Below, in pieces: positions 11,642-13,123 of a stretch of 16,197 bases of DNA (positions within the stretch are counted from its first letter, which is position 1; each line of letters opens with the position of its first letter). Source of the DNA: a virus. The position numbers and the translations under genes are program-made. The stretch is from IMG/VR virus record IMGVR_UViG_3300006162_000592; one strand, 5' to 3'. The notes beneath the pieces were generated by a model that did no database searches, had not been told where the DNA came from, and worked only from the letters and a program-made list of their open reading frames with translations.

Positions 11642-11992
11642 CTACCAGGTGATCTTCATTCCGCCGCTCTGGTACTCCTCCACAGCATAGCCTTCGTTGC
11701 GAAAGTGGTTCATCAGCATCTCGTGGATCGGCAGGTCGGCGTCCTTGACCCAGATGACCTCGTCTCCGTTGGGGTTCAGGTCAGACGGCGCGTAAGTGCC
11801 GTGGTGCCCCTTCGCTGCCGCTGTCTTGATGTAACCCTCAACCTGCGAGACCAGCGCGGAACCGCGCTTCTTCCAAAGCGCCTCAGCCTGCTTGGTCTTT
11901 TTGACGAGGGTTGCCCTGTATTCCATTTCGTGGTCACGTTGCAGCTTGGCGATGGCTCGCTTCGCCTTTTCCCGTGCCTCTGTTGCGTTCAT
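11642..11992 (-). CDS. hypothetical protein (116 aa)
   Basis: GAGGGGG lies before ATG 11992 (MNATEAREKAKRAIAKLQRDHEMEYRATLVKK...). There is a TAATG overlap with the PTH2 stop. The Arg-rich N-terminal extension in the track is discarded. Confidence 0.5.
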   Translation of the reverse strand: MNATEAREKAKRAIAKLQRDHEMEYRATLVKKTKQAEALWKKRGSALVSQVEGYIKTAAAKGHHGTYAPSDLNPNGDEVIWVKDADLPIHEMLMNHFRNEGYAVEEYQSGGMKITW

Positions 11993-12273
11993 TATTCCCC
12001 CTCTTCGCCGTCTTCTTCTTCCTCGTACCAGCATACCACGGTGTGGGAGCCAGCGGGAACCTCTGTGTAGCCCGCGTCGGTGACAACGTAGCCCTCCGGG
12101 TGCGCTTGGACGGCCTCATAGAACTTTTTGGTGGAGGCTTCCAGCACGACACAAGACCAGTGGTCTTGCGGGTCTTTCTTGTACAGCCCGATGCCCGCGT
12201 GGACACACTGCGCCGCGACCTTGCGTTCCGACATTCGCAGGTTCTTGTGGATGAGCATCTTGATCTTCTTCAT
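11992..12273 (-). CDS. pth2: peptidyl-tRNA hydrolase, PTH2 (archaeal/eukaryotic type) family (93 aa)
   Basis: MKKIKMLIHKNLRMSERKVAAQCVHAG...DAGYTEVPAGSHTVV matches the PTH2 core as I recall it (human PTRH2 [25 protein letters not shown] ... DAGRTQIAPGSQTVL). Confidence 0.7.
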   Translation of the reverse strand: MKKIKMLIHKNLRMSERKVAAQCVHAGIGLYKKDPQDHWSCVVLEASTKKFYEAVQAHPEGYVVTDAGYTEVPAGSHTVVCWYEEEEDGEEGE

Positions 12274-12302: not shown

Positions 12303-12399
12303 TGGTAGCGGACCTCGGAGTCGAACCGAGCCGGGCACCCCAATCTAGGGCGACATCACGGGTTTATAAGACCCGCCCGCACAACCAGTGCTGTCCGCT
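12303..12399 (-). tRNA. atypical long tRNA (97 nt with CCA); best anticodon loop CUUAUAA gives anticodon UAU, which would read AUA
   Basis: On the minus strand it has a perfect 7-bp acceptor stem AGCGGAC/GTCCGCT, discriminator A73 and an encoded CCA. The T-arm is canonical (CTCGG TTCGACT CCGAG). The anticodon arm CGGGT-CTTATAA-ACCCG has U33 and A37. The D region is short (GCAC TGGTT GTGC), and a 28-nt variable region contains a second hairpin CGCCC-TAGATTG-GGGTG. It does not fit class I or class II cleanly. Confidence 0.5.
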
Positions 12400-12403
12400 A
12401 ATC

Positions 12404-12492
12404 TGGTGCGAGCGACAGGATTTGAACCTGCACTCCCCCGTAGGGGAAGGAGGGTTTAAGTCTCCGGCGTCTGCCAATTCCGCCACGCTCGC
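12404..12492 (-). tRNA. tRNA-Leu (anticodon UAA, reads UUA/UUG)
   Basis: Acceptor GCGAGCG/CGCTCGC, A73 and CCA. D arm is GCG-GAATTGGCAGA-CGC (E. coli Leu-like). Anticodon loop is CTTAAAC. Long variable arm TTCCCCTACGGGGGAG. T loop is TTCAAAT. Confidence 0.85.
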
Positions 12493-12497
12493 AAACT

Positions 12498-12587
12498 TGG
12501 CGGAGACGGTGGGATTCGAACCCACGGTACCAGTTACGGTACACACGCTTTCCAAGCGTGCTCCTTAAGCCACTCGGACACATCTCC
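12498..12587 (-). tRNA. tRNA-Ser (anticodon GGA, reads UCC/UCU)
   Basis: Acceptor GGAGATG/CGTCTCC, G73 and CCA. D arm is TCC-GAGTGGCTTAA-GGA. Anticodon arm is CACGC-TTGGAAA-GCGTG. Long variable arm. T arm is TGGG-TTCGAAT-CCCA. Confidence 0.85.
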
Positions 12588-12592
12588 AAACT

Positions 12593-12684
12593 TGGCGGTG
12601 GGCGAGAGAGTCGAACTCCCAACGGGCCGTTAGACCCGTAACTGTTTTCAAGACAGCCGGACTTGCCAATGTACCAAGCCCACC
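12593..12684 (-). tRNA. tRNA-Ser (anticodon UGA, reads UCA/UCN)
   Basis: Acceptor GGTGGGC/GCCCACC, G73 and CCA. Anticodon arm is GCTGT-CTTGAAA-ACAGT. Long variable arm CGGGTCTAACGGCCCG. T loop is TTCGACT. Confidence 0.85.
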
Positions 12685-12796
12685 GAACTACTCGCAGGGA
12701 ACAAAGTGTCAAGGTGTCGCGGCGTCGAAGCCCCAAAGCCTTTCGGCTTTTCTATCCAGAAGTAACCTTGTCAAACACCGCTGCGATCTAAAATTT

Positions 12797-12888
12797 TGGC
12801 GGAGAGGACAGGAGTTGAACCTGCAACGGGCTTTTATACCCGTAGTCGTTTTCGAGACGACCGGACTTGCCAGTGTACCAACCTCTCC
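12797..12888 (-). tRNA. tRNA-Ser (anticodon CGA, reads UCG)
   Basis: Acceptor GGAGAGG/CCTCTCC, G73 and CCA. Anticodon arm is GTCGT-CTCGAAA-ACGAC. Long variable arm CGGGTATAAAAGCCCG. T loop is TTCAACT. Confidence 0.85.
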
Positions 12889-12889
12889 A

Positions 12890-12979
12890 TGGCGGAGAAT
12901 GAGGGATTCGAACCCCCGGTCCCCTTGCGGGGACTCAGGTTTAGCAAACCTGCGCGATCAGCCGCTCTGCCAATTCTCC
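12890..12979 (-). tRNA. tRNA-Ser (anticodon GCU, reads AGC/AGU)
   Basis: Acceptor GGAGAAT/ATTCTCC, G73 and CCA. Anticodon arm is CAGGT-TTGCTAA-ACCTG. Long variable arm GTCCCCGCAAGGGGAC. T arm is GGGGG-TTCGAAT-CCCTC. It is separated from the previous tRNA by 1 nt. Confidence 0.85.
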
Positions 12980-12984
12980 GTTAC

Positions 12985-13024
12985 CGCAAGACAACAAAAA
13001 AGCCGCCTGACTTCGGCGGCTGGT
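12985..13024 (-). terminator. intrinsic terminator between the leader ORF and the first tRNA
   Basis: Minus strand has a 7-bp G/C-rich stem AGCCGCC / GGCGGCU with loop GAAGUCA, followed by UUUUUUGUUGU. On the + strand the hairpin is preceded by an A-run, not followed by a T-run, so it is orientation-specific. Confidence 0.65.
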
Positions 13025-13051: not shown

Positions 13052-13123
13052 TTACGCGCCCACACCTTCGCCCCAGCCCATTGCTGAGCTACTAGAGGAC
13101 GATAATGTGGATATGAATGCCAT
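13052..13123 (-). CDS. leaderless 23-codon leader peptide MAFISTLSSSSSSAMGWGEGVGA, rich in the codons decoded by the downstream tRNA array
   Basis: The ATG 13123..13121 lies 6 nt after the -10 hexamer. Codons are ATG GCA TTC ATA TCC ACA TTA TCG TCC TCT AGT AGC TCA GCA ATG GGC TGG GGC GAA GGT GTG GGC GCG TAA. That is ATA, TTA and all six Ser codons consecutively, each once, plus an extra TCC. It is below the track's 60-aa cutoff. Confidence 0.6.
   Translation of the reverse strand: MAFISTLSSSSSSAMGWGEGVGA

Follow-up and report, generated by a model that had tools for sequence, protein, structure and literature searches.

A tRNA-Ile(UAU)-like gene with a second, GAU-bearing anticodon-type arm in a viral genome and its relatives

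The stretch of DNA analysed here (hereafter, the window) is the 16,197-nucleotide viral record IMGVR_UViG_3300006162_000592 from IMG/VR, which carries on its minus strand, at 12303..12399, a tRNA gene of 97 nt, encoded CCA included. Its sequence, a sub-threshold match to the Rfam tRNA clan and the covariation of its homologues define a five-stem, tRNA-Ile(UAU)-like RNA, in which an ordinary tRNA body bears two tandem anticodon-type arms: hairpin A with the anticodon UAU, and hairpin B, whose loop triplet GAU is the major Ile anticodon. This triplet is the key feature of the molecule, and it was missed by an earlier interpretation made from the letters without database searches (the sequence-only reading). 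On balance, we favour a working elongator tRNA for the rare Ile codon AUA, which may present hairpin B to isoleucyl-tRNA synthetase (IleRS).

Structure and conservation of the two-armed gene

Along the minus strand (12399..12303), the first half of the RNA reads AGCGGAC-A-GCAC-UGGUU-GUGC-GGG-CGGGU-CUUAUAA-ACCCG-UGAUGU, and the second half, CGCCC-UAGAUUG-GGGUG-CCCGG-CUCGG-UUCGACU-CCGAG-GUCCGCU-A-CCA. The acceptor stem is a perfect 7-bp helix between AGCGGAC (12393..12399) and GUCCGCU (12313..12307), the latter being followed by the discriminator A73 (12306) and the encoded CCA (12305..12303). After a single linker nucleotide, A8 (12392), comes a reduced D arm, GCAC-UGGUU-GUGC (12379..12391), which with its one linker nucleotide, 4-bp stem and 5-nt loop UGGUU departs from the standard D arm. 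Where the general cloverleaf has the single nucleotide 26, three extra G (12376..12378) precede hairpin A and form the 5′ strand of a short helix that encloses both hairpins, pairing with CCC at 12335..12333 in the minimum free energy (MFE) fold. Hairpin A, CGGGU-CUUAUAA-ACCCG (12359..12375), is the decoding anticodon arm, with UAU at 12368..12366 and both U33 and A37 present. The variable region of 28 nt contains hairpin B, CGCCC-UAGAUUG-GGGUG (12336..12352), a second anticodon-type arm with GAU at 12345..12343. It is joined to the T arm, CUCGG-UUCGACU-CCGAG (12314..12330), by the 5-nt spacer CCCGG (12331..12335), which is as long as a class I variable loop and contributes its CCC to the enclosing helix. 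The 7-bp acceptor, 5-bp T stem, UUCGA-type loop, U33, purine 37 and CCA are those of the general cloverleaf.

Standard finders do not report the gene. ARAGORN calls five tRNAs in the window, none of them at 12303..12399, and at the Rfam gathering score there is no match at these coordinates, the RF00005/CL00001 threshold not being reached. The best match in E-value mode is the selenocysteine tRNA model, tRNA-Sec (RF01852; 30.5 bits vs. a gathering score of 47, E = 7e-4, 12306-12400), and its alignment puts the anticodon loop at CUUAUAA, where the sequence-only reading had recognised it. The same alignment takes C7 out of the acceptor stem, and the resulting 8-bp acceptor (U-1:A73), or a tRNA-Sec-like 8/5 reading, was considered as a candidate structure; it is possible in the window and in some relatives, but impossible in the homologous loci L005 and L017, and was rejected. 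The RF00005 threshold of 29 bits is passed by homologues whose D arm is normal, e.g., L021 with 65.5, L100 with 60.4, L024 with 56.3, and L130 with 55.4 bits. The MFE fold of the gene already has the five stems, although the fold of this single sequence does not by itself reach significance (z = -1.56).

Comparison of the window region with deposited phages at near identity found none, the exact window pattern had no match in viral contigs, and the protein encoded next to the gene, a peptidyl-tRNA hydrolase of the PTH2 type, had no exact match on record. This protein, however, has many homologues, whose genomic contexts show the same tRNA-PTH2 module, and in several relatives the corresponding slot holds an ARAGORN call, a tRNA-Ile(tat) of 89-95 nt. 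The slot, located after tRNA-Leu(UAA) and before PTH2, was found at 38 loci, which yield 21 distinct sequences with a mean column identity of 66%. A family covariance model of the five-stem structure (R1) scores the members at these 38 loci at 65-100 bits, and other class II tRNAs at no more than 42 bits. Among the 21 distinct syntenic copies, which are the set for all counts out of 21 below, 90.3% of pair cells are paired vs. 62.8% in shuffles, and both sides change in 22 of the 29 pairs. The covariation score of 0.682 (shuffles, 0.192) is reached by none of the 500 shuffles, and slid controls give at most 0.149; an independent RNAalifold prediction contains the acceptor stem, the T arm and hairpins A and B. 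It is this covariation between homologues, rather than the single-sequence fold, that takes the gene beyond a chance fold, and shows that it is real and under structural selection.

Each helix contributes. Acceptor positions 1-6 are paired in all 21 copies, with compensatory changes at six of the seven pairs; the D-arm helix is 85.7% paired, both sides changing in three of its four pairs; stem levels 2-5 of hairpin A are paired in 21/21, again with compensatory changes; four of the stem pairs of hairpin B are always paired, C-G to G-C swaps included; and the T helix is 100% paired, with both sides changed in four pairs out of five. The D arm of other family branches is of the ordinary class I type. 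In the GGG/CCC helix, the innermost pair is G-C in eight copies, C-G in seven, A-U in three, and unpaired in three, with 69.8% pairing overall and weaker outer pairs. As a trait of the entire family this helix was rejected: all three pairs form in only 27 of the 174 members of the wide set described below, and the helix is therefore clade-specific. The positions invariant in 21/21 are U33-U34-A35-U36-A37 of hairpin A, A73-CCA, parts of the T loop and, in hairpin B, the triplet GAU at positions 3-5 of the 7-nt loop. The anticodon is placed at hairpin A by Rfam in the window and by ARAGORN in the homologues. These data bear out the description given by the sequence-only reading, i.e., a perfect 7-bp acceptor, A73, CCA, T arm, compact D arm, extra GGG, the anticodon UAU in CUUAUAA, and a second anticodon-arm-like hairpin in the 28-nt variable region, all of it correct on the minus strand.

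The 31-39 pair closing the loop of hairpin A, which in the window is U-A (12371 with 12363), is mismatched (C·A, A·A, A·C) in 13 of the 21 syntenic members, as it is in roughly 35% of wide-set members. The first acceptor pair, 1-72, is A1-U72 in the window (12399 with 12307), and a G·U wobble in 15/21 syntenic and 103/174 wide-set members, as well as in six of 17 phage UAU tRNAs lacking the second arm.

Hairpin B resembles a long variable arm in position, yet not in its loop. The arm has 4-5 bp, paired in 21/21, as in class II tRNAs; these tRNAs typically have arm loops of 3-5 nt without sequence conservation, and the neighbouring Ser and Leu tRNAs of the window have such short loops, whereas the loop of hairpin B has 7 nt and an invariant GAU, in a tRNA with the anticodon UAU. 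At its third stem level, the equivalent of C29-G41, a C-G pair is found in 21/21 syntenic and 144/174 wide-set members. The closest comparison is the anticodon arm of Escherichia coli tRNA-Ile(GAU), CACCC-CUGAUAA-GGGUG, which occurs at 100% identity, annotated as tRNA-Ile, in 5408 of 5426 genomes; the stem of window hairpin B matches CACCC/GGGUG at nine of 10 positions, hairpin B of L017 is CGCCC-CUGAUUA-GGGUG, and the Actinomyces member has a perfect CUGAUAA loop, followed by AAGGUC. In Acidobacteriaceae arrays (L110, L142), tRNA-Ile(GAU) has the arm CGCGG-YYGAUAA-CCGCG; being array or mobile copies, these provide no clean host reference.

The spacing is that of a tRNA as well. Between the loop of hairpin B and the T stem, the distance is always 9-11 nt (21/21), i.e., a stem strand plus a 5-nt variable loop, while the linker between the hairpins varies from 1 to 6 nt. 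Deletion of hairpin B in silico leaves an RNA of about 73 nt, called by ARAGORN as tRNA-Ile(tat) in 144 of 173 constructs; deletion of hairpin A leaves one of the same size, called as tRNA-Ile(gat) in 74 of 173. Taking together the constant spacing and the normal size of the deletion products, we see an ordinary tRNA body with two tandem anticodon-type arms, A being canonical relative to the D arm, and B, relative to the T arm. In our literature searches, no paper was found that describes an additional anticodon-type arm bearing GAU.

A structure-derived search pattern combined with a structural filter yielded a wide set of at least 176 distinct relatives from viral contigs, cultured phages and bacterial genomes. 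Position by position, loop B of 174 wide-set members is C/U, A (157), G (173), A (174), U (172), N, A/G; GAU is thus kept in 172/174, the two exceptions being one parser artefact and one GAC, although most of the set came from a pattern that required WGAT and ACCA, so that the invariance of GAU and A73 in this set is partly by construction. The loop motif of hairpin A was likewise imposed by the pattern, and the wide set provides no independent evidence for it. Outside the triplet, position 33′ is A in 157/174 (90%), position 37′ is U in 87, A in 61, C in 14, and G in 12 members, and position 38′ is A in 143/174. The unbiased evidence for GAU comes from the 21 syntenic sequences, from a scan without the GAU requirement, which added no more than two valid UAU tRNAs with a long arm (GAU in one, GAC in the other), and from a census of one scanned sample of phage contigs, with 18 valid long-arm UAU tRNAs (17 GAU, one GAC) and 17 ordinary class I ones. 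Whenever a UAU tRNA has a long arm, it is a GAU arm, the GAC copies just counted aside. We had expected phage UAU tRNAs to be armed nearly always, and the ratio of about 1:1 does not agree with this.

Reading of ATA codons and the role of hairpin B

The amino acid corresponding to ATA was derived from aligned orthologous open reading frames (ORFs) of the clade, retaining high-scoring segment pairs with differences concentrated at third codon positions, and tallying the residues opposite each codon; ATA never votes, and same-codon matches are excluded. Opposite ATA (85 sites), Ile is observed in 24% of cases, Met in 19%, Val in 17%, Leu in 10%, and Ser in 6%. Among the controls, CTA stands opposite Leu in 55%, TTA opposite Leu in 45%, GTA opposite Val in 45%, and ACA opposite Thr in 51%; true Leu codons align with Leu in 45-57%, compared to 10% for ATA. 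The log-likelihood is highest for Ile (-211.6), followed by Val (-236.1), Leu (-256.2), Met (-256.8) and Ser (-312.2). Hence, the phage clade uses ATA as an Ile codon, and recoding to Leu or Ser is disfavoured. In the window, ATA accounts for approximately 21% of Ile codons (35/164), a high share for a genome with 56% GC, in a crude, uncurated ORF set.

An independent indication that the UAU tRNA acts at ATA codons is provided by the leader ORF upstream of the tRNA array. The sequence-only reading had counted exactly one ATA in it, correctly, and this codon is present in all 13 distinct versions of the leader among the relatives; the window leader contains neither ATC nor ATT.

In bacteria, decoding of AUA normally depends on lysidine made by TilS, a dedicated and essential enzyme, as IleRS does not accept an unmodified UAU anticodon, which could also misread AUG. 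For E. coli IleRS, kcat/Km with UAU is 360-fold lower than with LAU (PMC3575796). The Ile identity elements include A73, the anticodon and C29-G41 (PMC9976931). In the two-armed gene, the combination expected of an Ile-AUA tRNA, a pairing anticodon plus A73, is present (UAU at 12368..12366, A73 at 12306) and invariant in homologues. As to other E. coli Ile elements, the window has G4-C69, C4-G69 being found in seven of the 21 copies; U36-A37 of hairpin A is possibly modifiable to N6-threonylcarbamoyladenosine (t6A), hairpin B has U37, and the D loop is too short for G16/D20/D21. C4-G69 and U12-A23 are both present in the branches whose D arm is of class I (L021, L024).

The positions fixed in hairpin B are those read by IleRS, namely G34, A35, U36, A38 and C29-G41, whereas at position 33 a share of 90% of members has A instead of U, and position 37 is unconstrained. 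Since the IleRS-read positions are retained and those needed by the ribosome only are lost, hairpin B may serve as the Ile identity signal, and hairpin A as the decoder. Hairpin A, with U33, UAU and A37, would satisfy the ribosome and decode AUA; hairpin B together with A73 would supply the signal for IleRS, probably in a conformer with B rather than A stacked under the D stem, and the ribosome would then read hairpin A. Charging with Ile, the function of B as an IleRS module and the conformer switch are all proposed from conservation and known identity elements. The outcome would be a TilS-independent AUA decoder carried between hosts by phages and mobile elements, in the window phage expressed behind an attenuator whose codons match the tRNAs of the array. 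That hairpin B is an IleRS identity module we consider about as probable as its opposite, judging by sequence conservation; the complete picture, i.e., a natural tRNA that separates identity (GAU arm, IleRS) from decoding (UAU arm, ribosome), is TilS-independent and transferable, and belongs to an autoregulated array, is tentative, falling a little short of an even chance.

Several observations weigh against this model. The role of hairpin B is read from its pattern of conservation, and the wide set behind much of that pattern was selected in part for GAU. For bacterial-type IleRS, t6A37 is a strong determinant (PMC9976931), and position 37′ of hairpin B is U, C or G in about 65% of members, the window copy included. 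Class II geometry puts the arm loop far from the anticodon site of IleRS, so that an alternative conformer has to be assumed. Of the further Ile elements, C4-G69 is a minority state (7/21), and those of the D loop are absent from the window type. The arm is not obligatory, about half of the phage UAU tRNAs in the census being without it (17 class I vs. 18 armed). Finally, the tally at the 85 ATA sites, which are not independent, reflects the usage of the codon and does not identify the tRNA that reads it.

Some of these points would be better accommodated if the tRNA accepts Ile and decodes AUA, and hairpin B serves in something other than recognition by IleRS, which we regard as unlikely, although to be taken seriously. 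Candidate roles are a folding or stability relic of an anticodon-arm duplication, a binding site or decoy for a host toxin or anticodon nuclease directed at tRNA-Ile(GAU), and a handle for modification or processing. Consistent with such roles are the phage UAU tRNAs that manage without the arm, the unfavourable geometry of a variable arm for IleRS, and the loop itself, which mostly lacks A37 (and t6A37) and at 33′ selectively has A (157/174), unlike the tRNA-Ile loop; moreover, allo-tRNA-UAU genes have been described near toxin-antitoxin systems (Mukai et al.; PMC5389517, main text). On the other hand, the fixed positions G34′, A35′, U36′, A38′ and the C-G pair at 29-41 coincide with the Ile identity set, and a pure relic would not hold an invariant triplet while its stems fully covary. 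As a processing handle, the loop is suggestive in that its AG|AUU is similar to RN|WUU, the motif of RNase E; this candidate was rejected, as it leaves the invariant G and the 35% of A at 37′ unexplained. We know of no nuclease specific for tRNA-Ile(GAU). Two contacts within the molecule were also rejected as candidates: kissing of the loops of hairpins A and B, in which UUAUA and AGAUU are not complementary on inspection, and pairing of GAU with AUC of the T loop, seen in some members only.

The sequence-only reading had left a choice between an Ile-decoding tRNA of unusual shape, which is the option we favour, and a tRNA charged with Leu that reads AUA, which is not supported. The latter implies a LeuRS substrate, recognised by A73 and the long arm, that inserts Leu at AUA; tRNA-Leu(UAA) is its array neighbour, and there is a precedent in vitro, as the nematode nev-tRNA-Ile(UAU) is leucylated (PMC3333845, PMC4300185). 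A73, taken as a Leu-type discriminator, is equally the discriminator of Ile (PMC9976931), however, and ATA codons of the clade align with Ile, Met and Val rather than with Leu, with the log-likelihood for Leu well below that for Ile. Recognition of the long arm by LeuRS or SerRS also leaves the invariant GAU of the 7-nt loop unexplained, LeuRS reading no arm-loop triplet: this is not a generic class II arm, and its deletion leaves a tRNA of class I size. The D arm is critical for Leu identity in bacteria, and D arms differ widely across the family. Altogether, we consider Leu charging improbable.

The assignment of roles could in principle be inverted, with hairpin B (GAU) as the working anticodon arm for AUC/AUU and hairpin A as an insertion, or both arms could decode, covering all three Ile codons. 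The canonical placement of hairpin B relative to the T arm, with its 5-nt spacer, the tRNA-Ile(gat) calls obtained upon deletion of A (74/173) and the perfect CUGAUAA loop in Actinomyces conform to this. A at position 33 and a pyrimidine at 37 are nonetheless incompatible with normal decoding, and hairpin B has the former in 157/174 and the latter in 101/174 members, whereas hairpin A keeps U33 and A37 invariantly; the window leader, furthermore, has ATA and no ATC or ATT. Such decoding by hairpin B is therefore highly improbable.

Slighter still is the probability of a Ser-accepting missense suppressor of the allo-tRNA type, or of an allo-tRNA-like RNA with a non-translational role, despite the best model score being that of tRNA-Sec and the presence of family members in metagenome-assembled genomes (MAGs) of Acidobacteriota. 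The acceptor and T stems have 7/5 bp, not 8/4 or 9/3, the discriminator is A73, not G73 or U73, and Ser, opposite 6% of ATA sites, has the worst log-likelihood (-312.2). According to the main text of Mukai et al., six allo-tRNA-UAU species with the anticodon changed to CUA inserted no Ser in E. coli (PMC5389517), and the conserved leader ATA points to translational use. Finally, decay of the gene, which the sequence-only reading had allowed for, or a chance tRNA-like fold has hardly any probability left: the missing ARAGORN and Rfam gathering calls, the fold z-score of -1.56 and an allo-tRNA-UAU pseudogene described in Edaphobacter C40 (PMC5389517, main text) are outweighed by 21 syntenic homologues, in which each of the five stems has undergone compensatory changes and the functional loops are invariant, by the tight spacing in a tRNA array and by the leader monitoring ATA, and the covariation, together with the RNAalifold prediction, excludes both.

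The tRNA array and its leader

The two-armed gene is the last in an array of six tRNA genes on the minus strand, in the order Ser-GCU, Ser-CGA, Ser-UGA, Ser-GGA, Leu-UAA, Ile-UAU, all with an encoded CCA. It starts 4 nt after tRNA-Leu(UAA), and the array as a whole is tightly spaced. All array tRNAs at 12404..12979 (minus) have long arms, and the four Ser isoacceptors cover all six Ser codons. Directly downstream of the array lies the ORF of the PTH2 peptidyl-tRNA hydrolase, an enzyme of the archaeal/eukaryotic type (12273..11992, minus; Pfam PF01981, E = 8e-9). This synteny of tRNA array and PTH2 is kept in dozens of related contigs, most of which have an additional ORF of 90-110 aa between the two-armed tRNA and PTH2.

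Upstream of the array, a sigma-70-like promoter, TTGACA-17-TACTAT, with 10 matches out of 12 (13130..13158, minus; motif kept in relatives), precedes the 23-codon leader ORF MAFISTLSSSSSSAMGWGEGVGA (13052..13123, minus). It opens with ATG GCA TTC, followed at codons 4-13 by ATA TCC ACA TTA TCG TCC TCT AGT AGC TCA, so that nine of these ten consecutive codons are codons read by the six tRNAs of the array, namely ATA, TTA and all six Ser codons. A terminator-like hairpin with a T-run, AGCCGCC-GAAGUCA-GGCGGCU followed by UUUUUUGUUGU (13001..13021, minus), separates the leader from the first tRNA (12979), which it immediately precedes, and is also kept in relatives. The fold of the leader RNA is better than those of shuffled sequences (z = -3.0), and it buries the regulatory codons in a hairpin that precedes the terminator. 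From one leader version to the next, the Ser codons change synonymously, and TTA is absent only from the leader of L055, whose array has no tRNA-Leu(UAA). All this looks like a leader-peptide attenuator sensing the tRNAs of its own array; to our knowledge, no tRNA operon under codon-specific attenuation by its own products has been reported.

Several other observations concern the arrays of the window and its relatives. On the tRNA-Sec model, tRNA-Ser(UGA) scores 50.9 bits, above the gathering score of 47, and tRNA-Ser(CGA), 43.6 bits (12596..12685 and 12801..12888, minus), with the same behaviour in relatives; these are Sec-like or allo-like shapes of Ser tRNAs, not selenocysteine tRNAs. Between Ser-CGA and Ser-UGA lies a spacer of 112 nt (12685..12796), compared to 1-5 nt elsewhere, with similar gaps in relatives; it contains the small hairpin GCCUUUCGGC and a weak match to CRISPR-DR60 (12730..12766, E = 1). 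Between Ser-UGA and Leu-UAA of L003 (92..171) and L004 (1706..1785), ARAGORN places a tRNA-??? of 80 nt whose anticodon has two nucleotides (tc). In L005, L006, L007 and L009, the final A of the CCA of tRNA-Leu(UAA) is at the same time nucleotide 1 of the two-armed Ile tRNA (e.g., 3584 in L005). In L023 (369..697), ARAGORN reports a transfer-messenger RNA (tmRNA) with the tag AGEGVRTDIA*, corresponding to the C-terminal end of the leader ORF joined to the tRNA-Ser(GCU) that comes next; the layout of leader plus tRNA has almost certainly misled the program.

Distribution, related systems and significance

The bacterial sources of the wide set include Acidobacteriota, Actinomyces, Rhodobacteraceae, Xanthomonadales, Aggregatibacter and others; a search of 5,426 E. 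coli genomes found no family member. In Acidobacteriota MAGs, the member is located inside large tRNA arrays. In Actinomyces, the gene is on the chromosome, flanked by housekeeping genes on one side and on the other by an integrated element, which at L106 (1937..7965) encodes a large serine recombinase, a relaxase and a type IV secretion system coupling protein, and abuts the 3′ end of the tRNA; at L100, a group II intron (4168..4289) is also present. Among cultured phages, Sinorhizobium phage Phosso carries a member annotated as tRNA-Ile(tat), and Synechococcus phages S-SRM01 (MW015081.1, ~32944..33035, L406) and S-SKS1 (HQ633071.1, ~178500..178591, L407) carry unannotated ones, which retain A73 without an encoded CCA; loop B of S-SKS1 is CCGAUUA. 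A comparison of host groups between cultured phages with armed and arm-less genes gave no informative contrast, as the BLAST matches drew in generic tRNA-Ile genes. Many members are missed or left unannotated by standard tRNA finders, as in the window and the two cyanophages, and the family is widespread and essentially uncharacterised.

The closest described group is allo-tRNA-UAU, which, according to the main text of Mukai et al. (2017, NAR 45:2776; PMC5389517), shares with the two-armed family the anticodon UAU, a long extra arm and a tRNA-Sec-like score, has 'five-stem-junction' structures, originates from soil and Acidobacteria, and did not insert Ser in E. coli. Judging by this description, the two groups probably overlap, and type iii relatives come from Acidobacteriota MAGs. 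The defining features of allo-tRNAs, an 8/4 or 9/3 branch and G73 or U73, are nevertheless lacking here, the branch being 7/5, and A73, invariant (21/21). The 2017 study assumed Ser identity and suggested a non-translational role, and its main text contains neither a GAU-bearing arm nor Ile identity; failure to insert Ser is the result expected of an Ile-accepting tRNA.

A different solution to the same decoding problem is known in bacteria lacking tilS (Mycoplasma mobile etc.; Taniguchi 2013, PMC3575796), where tRNA-Ile(UAU) reads AUA without lysidine and shares A73. There, the tRNA is an ordinary class I molecule, and IleRS is adapted instead, with Trp changed to Arg at 865/905 (PMC3575796); the two-armed family has an extra GAU arm and resides on phages and mobile elements of hosts expected to have a standard IleRS. 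Compared to bacterial tRNA-Ile(GAU), hairpin B reproduces the anticodon arm, including the 5-nt spacer before the T arm, in a molecule with the same A73, but position 33 is usually A, position 37 is unconstrained, and a complete UAU arm is inserted between the D arm and B. With the class II tRNAs for Leu, Ser and Tyr, the family shares a long stem-loop between the anticodon and T arms; these, however, have a characteristic D arm and short, unconserved loops in place of the 7-nt loop with an invariant triplet. Nematode nev-tRNAs (PMC3333845) combine UAU with an A73-type Leu identity, whereas the two-armed clade uses ATA as Ile. Hairpins that do not decode and mimic the anticodon arm of a cognate tRNA are found in the operator of the E. 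coli thrS mRNA, bound by ThrRS, and in viral tRNA-like structures. Such mimics sit in mRNAs or genomes and serve in regulation or tagging, while hairpin B would sit in a working tRNA and confer its identity.

If hairpin B indeed functions in this way, it would represent a new principle of tRNA identity, with the identity element relocated to an extra arm, and would reinterpret the most abundant group of allo-tRNAs, earlier thought to be inactive. It would also offer a scaffold for synthetic biology and codon reassignment, in which the anticodon of hairpin A could in principle be changed without loss of charging with Ile, the members of the family then serving as natural 'anticodon-independent' Ile tRNAs. 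For phages and mobile elements, it would be a new way to supply a decoder of a rare codon in any host.

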